Assembly: GCA_049999805.1 (NCBI GenBank)
Contig: JBNGIO010006183.1
Span: 186,414-231,939 of the forward strand
Origin: Folioceros fuciformis
Taxonomy: Eukaryota
DNA length: 45,526 bases
Direction of reading: 5' to 3'
Below, one piece after another: positions 5,341 to 45,526 of the stretch. The stretch's first letter is position 1. The number at the start of each line of letters is the position of its first letter. Made by a program: the position numbers and the translations under genes. Below the pieces are notes generated by a model. It saw nothing but the letters and a program-made list of their open reading frames with translations. It had not been told where the DNA came from and did not search any database.

Positions 5341-8300
5341 ATGAGGAACAGCCGTATCGGTGGCCACCTGAGGCTGTTGTACGGTAATTCTAGTGTCAAG
5401 CAGGATTCGAGCAAATATCTTGCACCCTTGGTGAGCGCACCCCACGCGGGCCAGGTGATAGTTGGCATGCCTCGTGTTGGCCGAGCAGCTGTAGAGGCAA
5501 TGTTTTGTTGGCTCACCGAGGATGAAATGCAGGGCAGGCTTTACGGCGAAAGTCCGAGTCTACGAAGTGCTTGTGGGAGCAAAGGTTCAGCAAGGTAGTA
5601 TATTTTTCTGTCAGGCATCTGGAACGAAGTTGGGCGGGACATTGAATCCTTGCACCGTTGCAGATCAACCGGAATACTGCGGAGAAGACAACAGAGGAAG
5701 GCTGGTCGCAGGCGGCATGGGTTGATGGCGAATTGGGGCTGCCCGGGTCTCCTGGGCCATGGAAAGCATCAAACCAGCTTGAGTCAGACAGCGGAGCTGA
5801 TTTAAAGAGTCAGAGGTTCAATCTTCTGACTCCGCCCCTTTCCACTGTTTCGATTCAAACCTCGCAGATTGGGTTGTGCTTGTTCAAGGGTGCTTGTTTC
5901 ACCTGTCCTTCATTCTGCAGAGTGGCGAGGCGTAGAATTGCGGCGGAAGAGATTGAAAACTGGAGCAGGTTGTGTGATAGGCAGCTCAATGAAGCCGTGG
6001 ATGTGCTGGACCGCTTGGTGCTGGGGGGTTCTCCTGTCCCTGACATTGTATACTATCATGCCATCAAGGGATGCATTACAAACAGAGATCTGGTGGCTGG
6101 CAGGCGTGTTCATGCTCTTACTCACAAGAGTGGTGGCGAGTCAAAGACATACGTGGCTAACAATATCATACGGATGTATGCGTCTCACGGAAGGTTGGGG
6201 GAAGCCATTCAGGTGTTCATCAAGTTGCCAGAACCAGACACCTTTTCTTGGTTTTTCATCATTTTGGCCCACGCCGACCATGGGAAGCCTGACGAAGCTC
6301 TAAAACTTTATCACCAGATGCGGCGGTCGACTGTTAAGCCAGACAATCATACTTTTGTGGCAGTCCTTAAGGCATGCTCCAGTCTTGGGGATTTGACATC
6401 CGGCAAGCAGGTCCATGCCGATGTTTTGGGGAGTGTGGTCAAGCCGGATGTGTTTGTTGGCAATAGCTTGATAGACATGTATGCAAAGTGTGGCAAAGTG
6501 GGAGACGCTCGTGAAGTCTATGACAAGATGCCGACAAAGAATGTGGTGACTTGGAATGCGTTGCTTGGAGGCTATGTACAGCAGGGACTTGCTCAAGAAG
6601 CCCTTGCCCTCTTTGCGTGCATGCAAGAGCAGGACATGACTTCAGCCAATCACCTTACGTTTGTGTGTTTGTTGAAAGCTTGTGCTAGCATTGGAGCCCT
6701 TCGAGAAGGGAAAGAGCTCCATGCTCAGATCCGGAAAGGAGGATTTGAAGGTGATGTTATGGTGGGCAGCAGCCTGGTGGACATGTATGCAAAATGTGGG
6801 AGTTTGAGTTTTGCTCGACAGCTGTTTGATAGGCTGTCTTCGAGAAATGTGGTGACCTGGACTGCCATGATTGCAGGATACGCCCAGCATGGATTAAGTC
6901 AGGAAGCCATAGCCCTTTATGCAGAAATGCGGCAGGAGGGCTTGGCTGCACGCAATCTTGCCACATTTGTTTCCCTGCTGAAGGCGTTCACAAACATAAG
7001 AGCTTTGCAACAGGGCAAGGATCTCCATCTCCAAATACAGAAAATAGGGGTGGAGGGCAATATGGTTATCGGGAGTTGCCTGGTAGAAATGTATGCAAGA
7101 TGTGGTAGCCTAGATGATGCCCGCAGGCTGTTCGACAGATTGCCCTCACGAGACACAGTGACTTGGAATTCGATGATCTCTGGGTATGCAGAGCAGGGAC
7201 TTGGCCAAGAAGCTCTTGACCTTTATCAAAGCATGCAACAGGATTGCACGATTACACCCAGTTTAGTTACGTACGTCTGCCTGCTCAAGGCATGTGCCAG
7301 CGTTGGAGCTTTAAAGCTGGGTGAGCAGATCCATTCAAAACTTCAACAAGGTGCCATCGAATCTGACCTGGTTGTTGGCAACTGCCTGGTGGACATGTAC
7401 GGAAAGTGTGGAAGCCTGGAGGATGCTCGCAAAGTGTTTGACAGATTGCCTAAGAAGGACGTGATCACATGGACTGCTCTCTTGAATGCCTATGGGCAGC
7501 ATAATGAAGGCTCAAGGGCCATGCAGTGCTTCGAAGAGATGCAGCAATCAGGGCTCACACCCAATGCTGCCACTTTCACTTGTCTTCTCTGTGCCTGCAG
7601 TCATGAAGGCCTGATAATTGAGGGCCGGCGTTATTTCAAAATGATGGTTGAAGACTACGGCATTGCACCCACCGTTGACCATTACAATTGCATGGTCGAC
7701 CTTCTTGGGCGGTCTGGCCACCTTGATGATGCAGAGAATATGTTGCAAGCCATGCCATTTAAGACGGACGTGGTGGGGTGGAGATCCTTGCTAAATGCGT
7801 GCAAAATGTATGCTGATGTTGAGCGGGCAGAGCGTTGCTTCAAACATCTTGTGAAATTGGAACCCAAAGCAGCAGCTTCTTACGTGCTGCTAGCAAACAT
7901 CTACGCAAACGCAGGCAGGTGGAGGGATGCAGAGCACGTAGAAGGCCTGCGGAAGTCAGTAGGTGCTGGCAAGAAGCCTGCAAGGGCCTGGATTGAGGTG
8001 AACAGTAGAGTCCATGGCTTCGTCGTCGGGGAAGAAAGGGACGACATCGCGTCGAAGCTAAGGAGTGTGAATGAGAGGTTGAAGGAGGAAGGCAGCCACG
8101 TCCCGCAAACGGAGTTGGTGCTGAAGCCGTTGTCTGACAGAGAGAAAGAAGATTCTCTGTGTGGACACGCGGAAAAGCTAGCATTGGCTTACGGCCTTCT
8201 GAACACTCCAGACGGTACACCTCTGCTTGTCACCAAAAATCTTCGCATGTGCGACGACTGCCACACTGGGACGAAGACCATGTCAAGGACCGAACAACGA

Positions 8301-8375
8301 GAGATTATAGTTCGTGATGCACACCGTGTTCACCGGTTTGTGAACGGGTTTTGTTCCTGTGGGGATGGGCTTTAA
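5341..8375 (+). CDS. PLS-class PPR protein with E1-E2 and variant DYW:KP deaminase-like domain (candidate U-to-C RNA editing factor)
   Basis: ORF 5658-8375 has 17 P/L/S motifs, E1, E2, then KKPARAWIEV...CGHAEKLA...LRMCDDCH...HRFVNGFCSCGDGL*. The first in-frame ATG (6174) lies inside the PPR array, so the start is on upstream exon(s). Best model: 5341-5430, 5538-5594, 5664-(5815), (5921)-8375. The 5' end is uncertain. Confidence 0.9.
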
Positions 8376-15611: not shown

Positions 15612-15759
15612 TGAATCAATCCCCAATTCGCGTCCAGCTACTCCTTAGCAAGCTCAAGTTCATAACTGAGCAGGCTTCATAACATTAACATCTCAACTTG
15701 AAAGAGTATCGCATAGTGTAAGGGAAGAAATTTAAACAAGCAGGCTCTGGCAGCATGGA

Positions 15760-18675
15760 ATGCTGCAATCGCTGCCATGGAGTGCAGCTGCTGCCATGCA
15801 GGAACGGTTTGCAGCTTGGATGTGTTTCGGTGCATGCAAAAGTGGGGCAGTCATCCCGACTTCAGGCACAAGCGGTGGAACCAGGCCCTGTGGCTACATA
15901 TTGCTGGGCTGGATTCCCGAGATGCTCGGCTGCAGGTTGCAACCAGGGACATTCCTGGTTCTGTACTTCCCCTCAACGCGTCTCCAAGGTAGATGGGCTT
16001 CGTGTTGTCAGAACTTTTTTTCTGTCATTGTGCTGCGCTGCATTGTGACGTGTCGGGACGTTTGCAATTGCAGAGAGTCAGGCACGTCTCTGGACGCGCG
16101 TGAATTGGAGACATTATTTTGGAAGGGGTGGCTGCGCGAGGCACTACTCTGCTTGGAACAGCAGGGAGTAGTGCCCTCGGATCGGGTGTACAAGAATTTA
16201 CTGCAGGCCTGTGGCAAACGGAAGGCAGTTGTAGAGGCCAAGCTGGTACATGCTCATTTGACAAAGCATGGGCTAGAGTCCAACAGGGTGTTGGGCGACC
16301 TTCTAGTCACCACGCTGGTCACCTGTGGGATGTTTGAAGATGGACTTGAGGTCTTCAAGAAGTTCCACTATCGGACTGTTTATTCTTGGACAGCTATCAT
16401 TTCAGGGTACAGCAATGCTGGACAGTGTCGCCAAGCTCTGGCATGCTATGAGGAGATGCTACTGTCCGGTGTGGAGCCTGACAAATATACGTTTGTTGCC
16501 TTGCTTAAAGCTTGCAGCAGGTTGGAGGAGCTGGAAAAGGGCCAGCGGATTCATGCTGATATCGTGAGACGTGGGCTGGAAAATGATGTCTTCATCGGGA
16601 ACACGCTAGTTAGCATGTATGCGAAGTGTGGGAGCATCCTGATCGCACAGCAGGTGTTTGATTGTTTGTCGCAACGCAATGTGGTGTCGTGGAGTGTCAT
16701 GATCTCAGCGTATGCTAAGTATGGGCAAGGGGAGCAAGCTTTAAAGGTTTATGCGCAAATGCAACACGAAGGAATCAAAGCTGATGCTCGGACCTTTGTC
16801 AGCGTTTTCCAAGCATGCGGCATGATTGCAGAAAGTGAGGAAAGTGTGTGCGTGGATGAGGAGCACTTCAAGGTGGGGTTATTGCGACAGGGTAAGGAAG
16901 CACATGCTGCAGCAGCAGGGAGAGGGTGTGACGCGGACATCTTTGTTGGCAACAGTCTGGTCTCCATGTATGCAAAGTGTGGGAGCATCGACAATGCATA
17001 CCATGTGTTTGATAGCTTGTCTCTGCGAGATGTGGTGTCATGGAATGCACTACTTGCAGCGCATGCCCAGCAGGGTCAGGCAGAAACAGCGGTGCACATC
17101 TATGGCCGGATGGTGGAAGAAGGTATCAAGCCAACTGGACGGACTTTTGCCAGTGCTCTACAGTCGTGCAGCACCCTTGCAGAAAGGGAGGACGCGATGT
17201 ACCTGGATGGGGGGTATGTGAAGGTGGAGTCTCTGCAGAAGGGGAAGGAGATTCATGCGGATGCCACCGGAAGTGGTTGTGAATTGGACGCCATTGTTGG
17301 TAACGCTTTGGTGACTATGTATGCAAAATGTGGGAGCATCGTGGATGCGCAGCAAATATTCGACGGGTTGAATAAACATGATGTTGTGACATGGACAGCA
17401 ATTATCGCAGCTTATGTACAGCAGGATCAAGGGGACAAGGCTCTAGAGTGCTTTTGGCGGATGCAAGAGAAACGCATCAGGCCAAACTCCCGGACATTCG
17501 TTAGTGCACTCCAAGCTTGTTGTGTGATGGCAGAAGTGGAGGACTTCGCACTCGTGGATGGTCAGAACGTGAAAGATGACTCACTCCGCAGAGGAAGGGA
17601 AATACATGCTGAAGCTGCGGGCATGGGTTTGGAATCGGATGTGTTTGTGAGTAGCACTTTGGTTACTATGTACGCAAAGTGCGGGAGCATTAGGGACGCC
17701 GAACAGGTGTTCGACAGATTGGCTGATCGTGATGTGGTTTCATGGACTTCCATGATTGCAGCGTATGCTCAGCAGGATCAAGGGGACAAGGCTCTGCAGC
17801 TGTTTGCCCGCATGTCAGGAGAAGGGGTGATTGGTCATGAGGCGACATTTCTCTCGGTCCTGAAGGCGTGCAGCAGTACAGGAGCTTTAGATGTTTGTCT
17901 TGACATTCATAGAATTATAGTAGAATGTGGATTCCAGTCTAACGTGCCTGTAGCAAACAGTCTTATTTATACATTGGGCAAATGTGGAAGCATGAGTCAT
18001 GCTCAACAAACTTTCGACTCACTGCCCGAGCCTGATGTGGTATCATGGACGGCACTTATGGCTGGGTATGCTCGACTGGGAGATGGCCATTCGAGTGTGC
18101 AGTGCTTTGAGAGCATGTGCATGTCAGGTGTGAATCCTAATAAAGTCACCTTTCTGGCACTTCTCTCCGCATGCAGTCATGCTGGCATGGTGGAGCAAGG
18201 CTTAGAGTACTTTGGAAGCATGAAAAGGAAATTCGGCATCTGTCCGGAGCTGGAGCATTATGCTAGTGTAATTGATCTTGTTGGTCGCGCAGGACTCCTC
18301 ACAAAGGCAGAAGAGCTGGTTTTACAAATGCCAATGGAGCCTGATTCATCAATTTGGTTGAGCTTGTTGGGTGCTTGTCGGAAACACGGTGACGTGGAGC
18401 GGGCAAGGCGGGCTTTCCATGGTGCTGTCGGTTTAGATTCAACAAAATCTGCACCATATGTCCTCATGTCAAGTACTTATGCTGATGCCGGTATGTGGCA
18501 TAATGCACAAGAGGTAGATCAATTAAGGCAGAGTGCAAATGCATGGAAGAGGGAGCCAGGCCAAAGCTGGATAGAACATGATGGAGAGGTTCACACGTTT
18601 TTAGTCGGAGACTGCAGACACGGATCCACAGCAGATCTTAACAGACTGTTGCAACAACTGAGTGCAGTCCTGTGA
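15760..18675 (+). CDS. PLS-class PPR protein, E+ type (PG box, no complete DYW), with three 51-aa long-L motifs
   Basis: 20 P/L/S motifs, E1, E2, then WKREPGQSWIEHDGEVHTFLVGD and a stop before any HxE/CxxC. Probable short 5' intron starting at 15989; the true ATG is 15755, 15760 or 15777. Confidence 0.92.
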   Translation: MLQSLPWSAAAAMQERFAAWMCFGACKSGAVIPTSGTSGGTRPCGYILLGWIPEMLGCRLQPGTFLVLYFPSTRLQGRWASCCQNFFSVIVLRCIVTCRDVCNCRESGTSLDARELETLFWKGWLREALLCLEQQGVVPSDRVYKNLLQACGKRKAVVEAKLVHAHLTKHGLESNRVLGDLLVTTLVTCGMFEDGLEVFKKFHYRTVYSWTAIISGYSNAGQCRQALACYEEMLLSGVEPDKYTFVALLKACSRLEELEKGQRIHADIVRRGLENDVFIGNTLVSMYAKCGSILIAQQVFDCLSQRNVVSWSVMISAYAKYGQGEQALKVYAQMQHEGIKADARTFVSVFQACGMIAESEESVCVDEEHFKVGLLRQGKEAHAAAAGRGCDADIFVGNSLVSMYAKCGSIDNAYHVFDSLSLRDVVSWNALLAAHAQQGQAETAVHIYGRMVEEGIKPTGRTFASALQSCSTLAEREDAMYLDGGYVKVESLQKGKEIHADATGSGCELDAIVGNALVTMYAKCGSIVDAQQIFDGLNKHDVVTWTAIIAAYVQQDQGDKALECFWRMQEKRIRPNSRTFVSALQACCVMAEVEDFALVDGQNVKDDSLRRGREIHAEAAGMGLESDVFVSSTLVTMYAKCGSIRDAEQVFDRLADRDVVSWTSMIAAYAQQDQGDKALQLFARMSGEGVIGHEATFLSVLKACSSTGALDVCLDIHRIIVECGFQSNVPVANSLIYTLGKCGSMSHAQQTFDSLPEPDVVSWTALMAGYARLGDGHSSVQCFESMCMSGVNPNKVTFLALLSACSHAGMVEQGLEYFGSMKRKFGICPELEHYASVIDLVGRAGLLTKAEELVLQMPMEPDSSIWLSLLGACRKHGDVERARRAFHGAVGLDSTKSAPYVLMSSTYADAGMWHNAQEVDQLRQSANAWKREPGQSWIEHDGEVHTFLVGDCRHGSTADLNRLLQQLSAVL

Positions 18676-40174: not shown

Positions 40175-40274
40175 NNNNNNNNNNNNNNNNNNNNNNNNNN
40201 NNNNNNNNNNNNNNNNNNNNNNNNNNNNNNNNNNNNNNNNNNNNNNNNNNNNNNNNNNNNNNNNNNNNNNNNNN
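40175..40274. other. Assembly gap (100 N)
   Basis: Run of exactly 100 N, a typical scaffold placeholder; true distance unknown. Confidence 0.99.
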
Positions 40275-40462
40275 CGGGGGGGCGGGGGGTGTGTGTGTTG
40301 CTACGGCGTCGAAGAAGCAAGAAAGCGTGTAGGCAGACTGATTTGCGAGGCAGCTAATCGCAAGTCCTGAATTCTACTTCTCCCGCCCCTGCCGACGACG
40401 TCCTAGCATTGAGCCTCCTGCAGTGGCATACAAAAAAGAAGAAGGATGGAGTAGCAAGGAAA

Positions 40463-40948
40463 TCAAGCTCCGAACCACACCAAGTGGGTGGAGGTGTCGA
40501 GATCGTAGTGATGGCTGCTGGATGACGAGTCTAGCCCCAGATGCAGCGCGGTGTCGTAGTCGTGGTCGGAGCCGTCCCGGCAGCCGCTCTTGCTCGAGTC
40601 GCTGTCCTTGGACCTGCGGTTGGCCGAGGAGCAGGAGCCCCGCGATCGGCCCAGTCGCAGCTCCAGGTCCAGGTCCAGTTCCCGGTCGGCCCCTTCCTCC
40701 GCCTCCTCCGCCTGCGCGTAGTGCTGGGTTCTGAGGCTGGAGCCGGAATCGGGTGTGGCGTCCACCAGGTCGCGCAGCGCCGTGAGCAGGAAGTCGTCGC
40801 CCCTGCGGCGGGCGTCCGCGAAGAATTTGGTGGCCTGCGCGTCTGACCAATTTCGTTGGTATATCGCGTTCAGGATGCCGCTCATCATCTGGCCCGACAC
40901 CCGCTCTTCCAGGCCCGCCAGCCAGCTGACCCACTCAGGGCTGCCCAT
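40463..40948 (-). CDS. Small intronless protein (161 aa) with N-terminal RST-like helical domain and C-terminal EAR motifs
   Basis: ATG 40948 in a good context (GCCATGG); strongly GC3-biased codons; LDLDLELRLG EAR motif plus DTALHLGL; pyrimidine-rich leader, a TATA-like stretch (~41353-41366) and a G-box (41393-41398) upstream. Confidence 0.7.
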   Translation of the reverse strand: MGSPEWVSWLAGLEERVSGQMMSGILNAIYQRNWSDAQATKFFADARRRGDDFLLTALRDLVDATPDSGSSLRTQHYAQAEEAEEGADRELDLDLELRLGRSRGSCSSANRRSKDSDSSKSGCRDGSDHDYDTALHLGLDSSSSSHHYDLDTSTHLVWFGA

Positions 40949-43629
40949 GGCTGCCGCTAAGCCTTGCGATTGCACGGCCTGCTAGCGCTGCTGGTTGCGA
41001 GTTTGGAGTGGAATTGAAATGGGCTGGGTGGAATGGGAATGGCGATGGGAACGGAGACGGGGACGGAAACGGGTGACGGGTGACGGATGACGGATCCAGA
41101 GGAAATGGACTCCCGGAGAGGACTGAGCCCCGGACTGAGACTGACTGAGCAACAAAATGCAGACTCTGAGGGGCCGGAGAGCTGGAAAGCGGCGGGCCGG
41201 AGGCGGGTGAGAGAGGCACAAGACAAGACAGACAGACGGGACGCGCCACACCCCAGAGAGAAGAGCGGAGAAGGCTGACTGGAGAAGCAGTAGCCTGCAG
41301 CCCAGAGCTTTGTGCACACAATGACGCTTGAGGGAATCTCGAGAGAATCCTCCTTTATGTTAAAAAGCGGGCATGCTGTGGGCTTGCGAGATCACGTGCC
41401 GTTTCAGCCACCACCCTAAACCCATCAATCTAACATCGGCATCACCTCTGCCTCCTGCCTCGCCGCGCCGCTTACACGCGGGTGTTAGATTCTAGTACCA
41501 TTCTAAGTGGGCGGTTAAGATTCTACTGGATCTTGACGCAGTTTTCACTTATGGGCCATCGTCAATTTGGTGACCAGTTGATTACATTCCTCCACGCTCG
41601 TCCACGGAGCCCTTTGATTCCACCGGGAACCAGACCGGTGCTGCCGGAATATCATATGCCTTCTTCCCTCACAACGCCCGCGCTTGTACTATCCAATATG
41701 CATCCAACGCCACTTGCAGATGGCCCTGCGACCTGCTATGGAGGTACTACCTACATGAACACGGTCTCCCAACTGTGCTTGTGCTTGTGCCTGCGCCTGA
41801 GCCTGTACACTACCAAATCAAATCAAAATTGAATGAGGTTGGATTTGGCTGCGGGAATAAGGCTGTTGCGGAATATCTGATGGGTGGACTTTTGTGCAGC
41901 AGCCTGGAGGGAAGACTCCACTGGGTACGCTGTACTGGTGAGGTGGGCGAAGGAATTTGTTGTTTGGGGAAATGAGCAAAGTCTGATGTGGGCTGTGGCC
42001 GCTATGTAAAGCGTAAAAGGGCCCAGGCCCGACCGAGACCCAGACGCAGGCCCATGCCCATGCCCACGCCGCAGGGCAAAGCTGGAGCTTCTTTCCTTAA
42101 ATGCCCCCAACCTGCTCCATCTCTCAACATGCTCTCATCTTAACGACCTGACCCCAAGTTGGATAGATAGGGCATTTGTATAGGGCAGCTAAAAAGCTTG
42201 GGTATTTTTGAAAAAGAAAAGTCGTTTTTTTTTAAACTCAAAAGGAGGGCCATCTTCAGATTCCACAGAGCATTACTCTTGTGGCGACGTTGACGAGGAT
42301 GATAGTGGTTAACGGTCTGCAGCTGCAGTCGGGCCGGGTGGCGGGATCAACAACTCACTCATCCTCATGAAACAGACACAGCCGTTTAAATGCTGCAAAC
42401 ACACACCCAGGATTATGGATCATGGTTGTTGCAGGAGAGAATCAATGCAACTTTGTCTTCTGCCTTGTGGAAGTGAAATCGACAGCAAGCCCCCTTCCCC
42501 AACGTCCCAGCCCAGCGTATTTCGAAGCCTGCCTTTCCCGTCACCTGGTTTAGGGCTCCGATTCCGATTACCCTTGCTGCCTACAGTCGTGCGCGCAAGT
42601 GCGCTGCAGATGTGGCAGCGAACCGGACAGATGACTTCAGCGCTGTTTTGTCCTCCCGAACTTGTCTCCCACCTCTAAACCATCATATAAGCCAAAGAGG
42701 CGGGAAGAAGATGTCCGAATGCAACACACAAATCCAGGAGCCCAGATCAGAAGCTTCAAGCTACCATCCGTTGTGGGTCCATTTGGCGAGAACCCCTCCG
42801 GATCCGGGTCCGGGTGCGGGTGCTGCTGATGGTGAGGCGAACAGAGTCAAACAAAACCTTTTCAAGGAATTTTTCACACCAGAAAAGTAGACCATCTGTA
42901 CATTGAGACACGGAACGAGTCTGGGCATATCGCATGCGAATGTCAAGCATCAAACACCAAGAGTCCTTACGATGCAAGCCATCGACGAGCCCATCTAATT
43001 CTTACAGCTGAGCAGATATCAGTCAAGGGTCACGTCTTGTCGCCCCGAAGCAAGTCTCCACAACTTAGCACGGGTAGGAACGAAACCCCTCGACATAAAA
43101 AGGAATAACACGACAGAATGAATTGATGATGTCTTCGGTAGTAATCACCTTGACGTCTCTCGGGACTATCTACTCTCAAGGATCATTTACCACATGAAGG
43201 ACTGCCATAAATTAAGGCACAGCTGTGCAAGACTCAAACGGAAGGGATAGGACCGTAAGGTTCAGACAAGAAATACGATCTGACCTCAACCCACCTCTTG
43301 TCGTTGGGAATGAAGGATTGTCCAAGCTACCCACTTGCACAACCTGCTTGAGGCACACGTCGTTCTATCATCAATGCAGGCTACTACAGAGTAGCATGCA
43401 AAAACTGGGATATACTTTTTTTCTCATCTTACATCCTCCTTCAGTCGAAGTCCAGCAACTTGATGCTGACGATAAACCGACTCAGATGCTCAGATGAAGA
43501 GAACCTGACAAGAGGAGAGCCAATTCCAGGTCACAGCCTCCAGCTCCGTCAACCTGCAACTTTCCACCTCACTCCTGTGAAGCGTAATCCCCATCTCACT
43601 GACACATATCCACATATCTGCTCGACTCC

Positions 43630-45526
43630 TCAAGATCCATAGAACCCTATCTGTTCCTCAAAGGAAAAGTCTAAGGGCCCTTCCATAGGCCCTCCAAAAT
43701 CAAACGTATGATCAAACATACCATCTGGTAAAGGCATATCGTCTTGAAGTGGTTCAAAGTGGCCATCCAGTATCTGGCTGCTCGAAGTGCTGCCCTGAAC
43801 AGCTCCGTTGCCCACCCCCCCCCAGTCGTAGACGTGCCCATGCCGGACAACTTCATCTCTACTTTCCATCCTCACTCCTCTAGCACTACTCATAGAAACC
43901 TGACCATTCCCGTGACCCTGGCCATCCATCAGGGGAGGAATCTCCACGTTGGTGGCAGGGTTGTTGTCGGACCTCCCATACACGCTGGCAAAACACTCCT
44001 GCAAAGGCGGCTGTTGGCTCCTGGCTCCTCCCATCTTGTGACCAGCGACAGCCATAGACACAAAGCCACTAGTGCCCTGATTAATGCCATCCACTCGAGT
44101 TTGGAACATGCCTTTCCCTGCACCTGCCTGTAAAACATTATGCGCTGAACCATTTTGCACGTACATGGGCCCAGTCGGCTCGAACTGATGCGAGCACGCA
44201 ATTTGATGAGAGTTTCTGGCGTTTCTATCAACAAAACCATGTGCTGCGTCATGATGGTAACAAGCTTCATACGGACAGGTGAAGGCCATGTTATCGATTG
44301 GTGATGACTCCTCTCCTATCCTTCTCTTCCTCCAGTTGTCTCCTTCCTGTGCTCTTGGAGGCAGCTGCTGGACATTTTGGTCTTCCCCGTCAGTGGGTCT
44401 CAGAGCAGCCTTTTGTTCAGGAAATAAGGGAGGCCGACTGCCATTCATGTTGTCACTGTAGGCATCCACACCTGCAGAGGGAGGGCGTTGGCGTGATGGC
44501 AGGCTGCCTACAATAACCTCATACTGCTCTACATCTCCTTCCGGACCCTCGTCGCTCGCTCCCCTGTCATTGATGAAGTGGTCAAAACCGTCGACGTCAT
44601 ACTCACTGGCACTATTGGCTGGCAAGAATGAAGAGGCATCTGTAGCCCCATGGATGGCACTGCTACTGACTACGCCAGCGGCGGACTTATTCATCTGGCG
44701 AGCGAGGGTCTCTTCCTGCTGCAAAACAGAGAGCCAGGTGGCACTCTCCTTGGCAGTCATCTTATCCTGCAGGCACTTGGACTGTCTCACCAGCTTCCTG
44801 ATTTTAGTGATGTCCGGAGACATGTGCTTGATGACAGCCGTGAGCACACCCACCTTCCAAGCCTTCTTCAAATCATGGGGCTTCTTGTAGGGAGGGGCTC
44901 CCTGCCCCTTGGACAGCCCGACCTCGGGCCACCAGTCCTCGTTCCCGGTGGGCCACCAGGGGGGAGGCTGGCCTTTCTCCAAGGGATACCTCCGCTGCGG
45001 AGGCTCGCAGTGCTGCATGAGTGCAGAGAGCAGCGAGCCGAGAGTGGTGTCCTGCAGCTCCTGCAGCGTGTGGGGGGTGGGGGCAGCCGCAGCCACCCCC
45101 TCCAGCTTCCCGGGAACACTGTGCTCAGCCTGGTACTTGGCTATGGCAGCAGGCCCATTCCTGTCGAACCTCACCTTCTCCTTCCACCAGGCCCTGATGT
45201 TGTCAGACGCCCCGCTCACAGGCTTCCCCTTCTCGGGAATGATGCCGTAGACGAAGCCCTGCGCCTTGCACACCTCCATCATCTTGAGCATGTACTTGAG
45301 GATGCCGTCCTGGGCCCGGGACATTTTCTTACGCCTGGCCTGCTCATGCGACTGCTTCTGCTTCGGCTTGTCGTTGGCCTCCTTGGTCTTCTGCATCTCC
45401 TTCATGCGCTTGTACGTGATGCGGTCCTTCCACATTCGCCTCTCAAGCTCCTCGATCTCGATGGTCTCGTCATCGCTGAGATCATCCTGCGTGCCGTCCC
45501 CGTCATTGTCCCCCCCAAAGTCCCCC
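43630..45526 (-). CDS. EIN3: ETHYLENE INSENSITIVE 3 / EIL transcription factor, 5'-partial (frame is open to the window end)
   Basis: [142 protein letters not shown], and a C-terminal FTCPY..C.H....[13 protein letters not shown] motif. Confidence 0.97.

Follow-up and report, generated by a model that had tools for sequence, protein, structure and literature searches.

The subject of this report is a small gene of Folioceros fuciformis that lies in a stretch of 45,526 nucleotides on contig JBNGIO010006183.1 (positions 186,414 to 231,939 of the forward strand). This whole stretch is called the window below, and positions are counted from its first letter. On the minus strand of the window, a single-exon coding sequence at 40463..40948 specifies a protein of 161 residues, here called P0001, in which an N-terminal domain of no known family is followed by a tail with two conserved EAR motifs (the amphiphilic repression motifs associated with ethylene-responsive element binding factors). 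We put forward, with evenly balanced confidence, the view that P0001, restricted to its lineage, acts as an EAR-motif adaptor or repressor and that its partner-binding domain is new. Its EAR motifs would dock into the TOPLESS-domain groove of the co-repressors TPL (TOPLESS) and TPR (TOPLESS-RELATED), its helical N-terminal domain would hold a partner protein, probably a transcription factor, and the targets of that factor would then be repressed.

Domain and motif architecture of P0001

The first EAR motif, LDLDLELRLG, spans residues 91-100 (40649..40678, minus strand) and exactly matches the first 10 residues in SRDX (LDLDLELRLGFA), described in PMC3904717 as a 12-residue repressor peptide that turns activators into repressors; 10 of the 12 SRDX residues are thus present, and P0001 resembles EAR domains of the SRDX/SUPERMAN type in this respect. 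The match includes the hexapeptide DLELRL, which, as reported in PMC4646777, suffices for repression when fused to the Gal4 DNA-binding domain. According to the same source, the LxLxL peptides of NINJA, IAA1 and IAA10 share a single groove in the TOPLESS domain (TPD), and none of the three LxLxL leucines is dispensable. The second EAR motif, DTALHLGL, is found at residues 132-139 (40532..40555, minus strand), with its LxLxL at 135-139.

Both motifs had been pointed out in the initial annotation, and both are conserved in P0002, the homologue described in the next section. LDLELRLGRS is invariant in P0002, with DLELRL present in both homologues, as are L135, L137, G138 and L139 of the second motif. 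Overlapping LxLxL sequences begin at residues 91, 93 and 95 of P0001, and a separate one at 135; in P0002 they begin at 102, 104 and 142, and the sites are aligned and invariant. Two separate LxLxL sequences arose in 38 of 5000 composition-preserving shuffles of P0001 and in 54 of 5000 of P0002. The stretch DLDTSTHL (residues 149-156; 40481-40504, minus strand), which had been taken for a degenerate third EAR motif, is present as annotated but contains no LxLxL, and the conserved part of this end of the protein is LVW[FY]GA instead. This C-terminal motif, LVWFGA in P0001 (40466..40483, minus strand) and LVWYGA in P0002, directly precedes the stop codon; L156, V157, W158, G160 and A161 do not vary, and each protein terminates at this motif. 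It is tempting to speculate that LVW[FY]GA, from its loose resemblance to R/KLFGV, might belong with the R/KLFGV-like motifs, which PMC3443911 describes as additional TPL-recruiting repression domains.

The regions that surround the motifs are disordered linkers (residues 67-131; 40556..40750, minus strand) that are acidic, serine-rich and fast-evolving, and the tail of P0001 consists to 57% of S, D, E, R and G. In the AlphaFold2 model, the predicted local distance difference test (pLDDT) value falls below 50 past residue 68, except in a short helix over the first EAR motif, and values below 50 are likewise found for the linker regions in the P0002 model. We also observed that the first EAR motif is coded by a hexamer repeat of the (CTGGAC) type, with GTCCAG occurring three times on the plus strand; such a repeat shows a route by which a motif of this kind can originate or expand by slippage.

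The N-terminal domain comprises residues 1-66 (40751..40948, minus strand) and is predicted to form four helices. In the model of P0001 these helices lie at residues 5-12, 19-31, 36-49 and 51-64 with pLDDT values of 80-89, and the same four helices were predicted for P0002 with pLDDT values of 66-77. The models are thus consistent with a small folded head (residues 5-64) and a disordered tail. As the initial annotation had held, P0001 has no recognisable DNA-binding domain: no DNA-binding family passed the Pfam-A thresholds in hmmscan, and the rows found at E ≤10 were all sub-threshold (LpxI_N with E values of 0.31 and 0.054, Dec-1, and Myb_DNA-bind_7).

Other searches for relatives of the N-terminal domain gave a similar picture. 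Among 177,635 PDB sequences, phmmer with P0001 returned a single match, a thiol protease (E 0.44), and hmmsearch with a profile of the N-terminal domain likewise returned one, a thiol:disulfide interchange protein (E 1.3). Foldseek comparison of the two AlphaFold models with the PDB gave 116 and 13 matches at E ≤10 and none at E ≤0.001; the leading matches were designed bundles, mitoribosomal proteins, SctV/FlhA subdomains and the Zuotin four-helix bundle. The ESM Atlas yielded no usable match for the full-length protein or for residues 1-68. We regard the N-terminal domain as the head of a new, undescribed family, and count the peptide-binding helical bundles DAXX 4HB and MLLE/PABC among the closest known systems to it.

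Coding evidence, homologues and selection

The 161-residue open reading frame (ORF) noted in the initial annotation runs without interruption from an ATG at 40946-40948, in the context GCCATGG, to a TGA stop codon at 40463-40465, and its product has a predicted mass of ~18 kDa. It is very probably a real gene, because it combines a coding-type GC content at the third codon position (GC3), a full-length homologue, an excess of synonymous changes in the N-terminal domain and a leader free of AUG. The GC contents at codon positions 1, 2 and 3 are 0.62, 0.50 and 0.86, respectively, and GC3 is 0.84 in the light-harvesting complex (LHC) gene of the window; in the alternative frames that overlap the ORF, GC3 is 0.49 and the GC peak falls at codon position 1 or 2. 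The probable 5′ leader (40949..41389, minus strand) is pyrimidine-rich and free of AUG over 40949-41373. These 425 nt upstream of the start codon contain no ATG on the minus strand, where shuffled sequences contained 3.4 on average and none in 46 of 2000 cases, while the opposite strand of the same leader holds 9.

An alternative account, in which a chance ORF has arisen in GC-rich DNA and there is no protein-coding gene, can point to the length of the frame, since 39 of the 500 shuffled versions of the surrounding sequence (40276-42000) contained an ORF of at least 161 residues, so that length alone is not significant. It can also point to the two further long frames that overlap the ORF and to the absence of the exact P0001 protein from a collection of 15 billion proteins. 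The codon-position GC contents, a homologue that shares both termini, the synonymous excess in the N-terminal domain and the leader without AUG nevertheless leave this account strongly disfavoured, and we consider it highly improbable.

A phmmer search of 1,835,955,588 representative proteins gave two matches at E ≤0.001. One is P0002, a protein of 166 residues from an 18.8-kb assembly contig, which aligns with P0001 from end to end (E 3.5e-26, 53% identity); the two proteins share the start MGS..PEW and the end ..LVW[FY]GA. P0002 is the sole true homologue from this search. The other match, P0003 (561 residues, E 2.6e-8), was rejected as a homologue and left out of all alignments, since it matches only through low-complexity tandem repeats of the DLELELG type. 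P0003 consists of seven nearly identical ~81-residue units that contain DLDQDLELELG stretches, and is probably a translated tandem DNA repeat. A word-indexed search among proteins near P0001 in length found no homologue with the single protein as query, and found P0002 only when a two-sequence profile was used; the same profile found none among 8000 longer proteins scored. Within the window, tblastn of P0001 revealed no paralogue, the best other match having an E value of 0.31. Judged by these searches, the P0001 family seems to be a lineage-restricted gene family of land plants.

Contigs from 4 of the 23 sequencing runs listed (X3, X14, X15 and X18) were compared with the locus. Three contigs of relatives, of 812, 1996 and 1104 nt and with three related organism labels, are ~93% identical to it; they span from 40353, 40366 or 40498 to 40983, and then from 41084 or 41184 to between 41274 and 41389. 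They are colinear with the genome and show no joint within the ORF. The contigs of X15 and X18 extend to 40353 and 40366 and past, through the probable 3′ untranslated region (40353..40462, minus strand). Run X3, which carries the same organism label as the window, contributed an identical contig of 259 nt that covers only 40433-40691, and this run behaves like RNA, given a GT..AG joint nearby. Expression of the gene is probable. The ends of the X14 and X15 contigs, from two studies, at 41389 and 41367 give a weak hint of a transcript start.

Upstream of the coding sequence, the contigs of the relatives show an uneven pattern of divergence. The stretch 41184-41389 diverges less than the coding sequence, with 7 differences in ~184-206 nt as against 32-43 in 486-631 nt, and the interval from 40983 to 41084 or 41184 is replaced by 80-124 unlike letters. 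A conserved element of the leader or promoter may lie in 41184-41389. Downstream, a 100-N assembly gap (40175-40274) lies ~190 nt beyond the stop codon. After the gap come a G-rich run and (TG)n, and assembly of the gene may be incomplete at its 3′ end.

The comparison with relatives also shows the gene to be under purifying selection, which is strong on the N-terminal domain. We classified 36 of the 59 differences from the contigs of relatives, 26 of them within the coding sequence; these pool three related organisms and are not independent events, and four codons with two changes each were scored singly. Among the 10 differences listed for codons 1-66, 8 are synonymous and 2 non-synonymous (S8T and D51E, both conservative), while the 16 listed for codons 67-161 comprise 6 synonymous and 10 non-synonymous changes. 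Each of the three differences listed within the EAR motifs (at R98, H136 and L139) is synonymous. At the greater distance of P0002, 42 of 69 alignment columns of the N-terminal domain are invariant and 39 of 100 columns of the tail are identical, and the invariant positions of the tail cluster in LDLELRLGRS, LxLGL and LVW[FY]GA.

Proposed function and alternative readings

A co-repressor adaptor is a reasonable reading of P0001 because the protein has no DNA-binding domain, because it has a folded helical module and strong, conserved LxLxL motifs, and because DLELRL is sufficient for repression. Adaptors such as NINJA are reported to extend TPL recruitment, and the TPL-EAR interaction to be conserved in a moss (PMC3443911). 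The logic of P0001 is that of the known EAR adaptors NINJA (PMC3443911), KIX8/9, SPOROCYTELESS/SPEAR/TIE (for SPL, PMC4650584) and ECAP (PMC13589544), which have no DNA-binding domain and join an interaction module to an EAR motif that recruits TPL/TPR. Unlike them, P0001 shows no sequence relation to these proteins (no Pfam family was assigned, and phmmer over 1.84 billion proteins gave P0002 and the repeat protein P0003), its partner-binding domain would belong to a different, undescribed family, and the gene seems confined to a narrow lineage. SUPERMAN is a C2H2 zinc-finger transcription factor. P0001 differs from it in having neither a zinc finger nor another DNA-binding domain, and in its additional LxLxL and its unrelated helical domain at the N-terminus. 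The domain and motif architecture of P0001 and its conservation are shown by the present analysis; we infer TPL binding, action in the nucleus, and both the existence and the identity of a partner for the N-terminal domain.

EAR adaptors decide which transcription factors can recruit TOPLESS, and each of the known ones (NINJA, KIX8/9, SPL and ECAP) made a signalling pathway analysable. If the proposal is true, P0001 would add a lineage-restricted adaptor in which a new partner-binding domain is joined naturally to a near-exact SRDX peptide. It would be a natural counterpart of the laboratory SRDX fusion, and a compact, testable case for the origin of new TPL adaptors or repression modules. A further step, which we offer tentatively and think possible although well short of probable, is that the N-terminal domain is a peptide-binding helical hub, like RST, PAH or MLLE in its action but outside these families, which captures disordered transcription-factor motifs and, by way of the SRDX-like EAR pair, makes TOPLESS-dependent repressors of the factors. 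In that case a TPL adaptor would have been invented independently, and specifically in this lineage, by an early-diverging group of land plants.

Several points weigh against the proposal of an adaptor or repressor. A single LxLxL arises readily by chance, in 833 (P0001) and 941 (P0002) of 5000 shuffles (~17-19%), and LxLxL can overlap leucine-rich export signals. That runs X3, X14, X15 and X18 are RNA is guesswork, none of the 23 listed runs being recorded as RNA. The tallies of substitutions and of indels in the relatives are partial, with 40 of the 59 differences and 12 of the 30 indels listed. The alignment behind the AlphaFold models is only two sequences deep, so that the packing of the helices may be wrong. 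Finally, the N-terminal domain has no known relatives, which makes its binding role pure inference, and it could be a module for stability or oligomerisation instead.

In another account, P0001 is a co-repressor decoy or modulator that binds TPL without tethering it to DNA, and either competes with other EAR repressors, which would bring de-repression, or cross-links TPL tetramers by means of its two motifs, with the N-terminal domain serving stability, regulation or self-association. A short chain that carries a conserved pair of EAR motifs would suit such a role, no partner of the N-terminal domain is known, and the EAR motifs of D53 are reported to promote TPL oligomerisation (PMC5457145). 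The strong purifying selection on the N-terminal domain (8 synonymous against 2 conservative changes among the differences listed) fits a specific binding surface equally well or better, and no evidence of self-association was obtained: the homodimer prediction for this domain, made with no alignment, scored 0.00 and gave no answer, which is evidence neither way. We judge a decoy or modulator to be rather unlikely. Somewhat less likely again is a function of the LxLxL motifs outside TOPLESS, for instance as a nuclear export signal or as an acidic-hydrophobic interaction region. Leucine-rich motifs serve several systems, and the frequency of a single chance LxLxL, given above, would be in keeping with such a role. 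Against it, the first EAR motif is a 10-residue match to SRDX that contains the experimentally sufficient DLELRL, and it is invariant across homologues of 53% identity amid a fast-evolving tail.

The remaining alternatives concern the identity of the N-terminal domain. The initial annotation had aligned its ~62 residues by eye with the RST domain of RCD1 (Pfam family RST, which we take to be PF12174) and had proposed an RST and EAR adaptor; in that case a divergent RST domain, an alpha-alpha-hub, would bind the RCD1-type motifs of DREB2/NAC-like factors and bridge them to TOPLESS. PMC9127584 characterises alpha-alpha-hubs as small domains of four helices in which a loop carries a hydrophobic residue. 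The head of P0001, with its four short predicted helices, shares with the RST domains of RCD1/SRO and TAF4 a length of ~65 residues, the number of helices and a hydrophobic residue in the loop that links helices 2 and 3, which in P0001 is the invariant W34. The four short helices of the model would also be compatible with a distant alpha-alpha-hub-like fold. In contrast, the assignment to RST was unsupported by every profile and fold search. No RST row was returned by hmmscan against Pfam-A at E ≤10 for P0001, P0002 or their isolated N-terminal domains, a search in which the HMMER filters discard most matches above about E 0.1, and no RST chain appeared in the profile search of the PDB sequences. 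For either model, Foldseek's 116 and 13 matches and the best 50 of 48,161 VIA-align comparisons included no RST, TAFH or PAH chain, which is an absence from these lists and not an exclusion. According to PMC9127584, RST domains are embedded in SRO proteins (WWE/PARP and RST) or in TAF4, and in RST/TAFH genes an intron precedes the alphaL-beta4 motif; the domain of P0001 stands alone at the N-terminus, outside either architecture and in a protein to which Pfam assigns no further domain, and its continuous ORF has no intron. We therefore consider a divergent RST domain improbable.

A still slimmer chance attaches to the N-terminal domain being a degenerate SANT/Myb-like domain, which would make P0001 a small MYB-related repressor with EAR motifs. 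Both P0001 and P0002 weakly match Pfam Myb_DNA-bind_7, residues 29-55 aligning with positions 6-32 of the 88 in the profile. The isolated domains gave E values of 0.17 and 0.02, and full-length P0002 gave 0.087. These matches reach 12.1-13.1 bits against a cut-off of 31 bits and cover about one third of the profile, the expected third helix falls in a disordered, non-conserved stretch, and the fold-search lists contain no Myb or SANT structure.

What stands of the annotated RST and EAR adaptor is a helical module with conserved EAR motifs and no DNA-binding domain, for which an adaptor role is reasonable; its RST identity is unsupported, and because of this the finding reduces to a lineage-restricted EAR adaptor or repressor of a known kind. 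The general picture is unchanged by P0001, and it is the more striking claim, that of a stand-alone RST domain, which lacks support. In a search for literature that combines an RST domain, an EAR motif and TOPLESS, the one search behind our view that the architecture is undescribed, we found no paper.

Genes and transcripts around P0001

The window is nuclear land-plant DNA, as judged by neighbouring genes identified with Pfam. These encode a receptor kinase of the wall-associated kinase (WAK) type, two pentatricopeptide repeat (PPR) proteins, of which one has a DYW deaminase domain and the other an E motif, the LHC protein, an AMP-binding enzyme, an arginyl-tRNA synthetase, a BCNT protein, an ABC transporter and an EIN3-type factor. 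The EIN3-type transcription factor gene (43630-45525; EIN3_DNA-bd, E 2.4e-128) is located ~2.7 kb upstream of the P0001 gene, on that gene's strand, and extends beyond the end of the window. The two PPR genes, at 5646-8375 and 15736-18675, are long, intron-less, of the PLS type and located within 13 kb; one has both E motif and DYW deaminase domains and the other the E motif only. This pair suggests that the genome is rich in RNA-editing factors.

Closer to the P0001 gene, in the region 41649-42000, positions 41741 and 41901 are joined in a contig of run X3, and the joint has GT..AG ends on the plus strand, which suggests a spliced, unannotated transcript adjoining the P0001 gene. A CTG/TGC-rich low-complexity stretch at 41773-41806 draws very high read depth.
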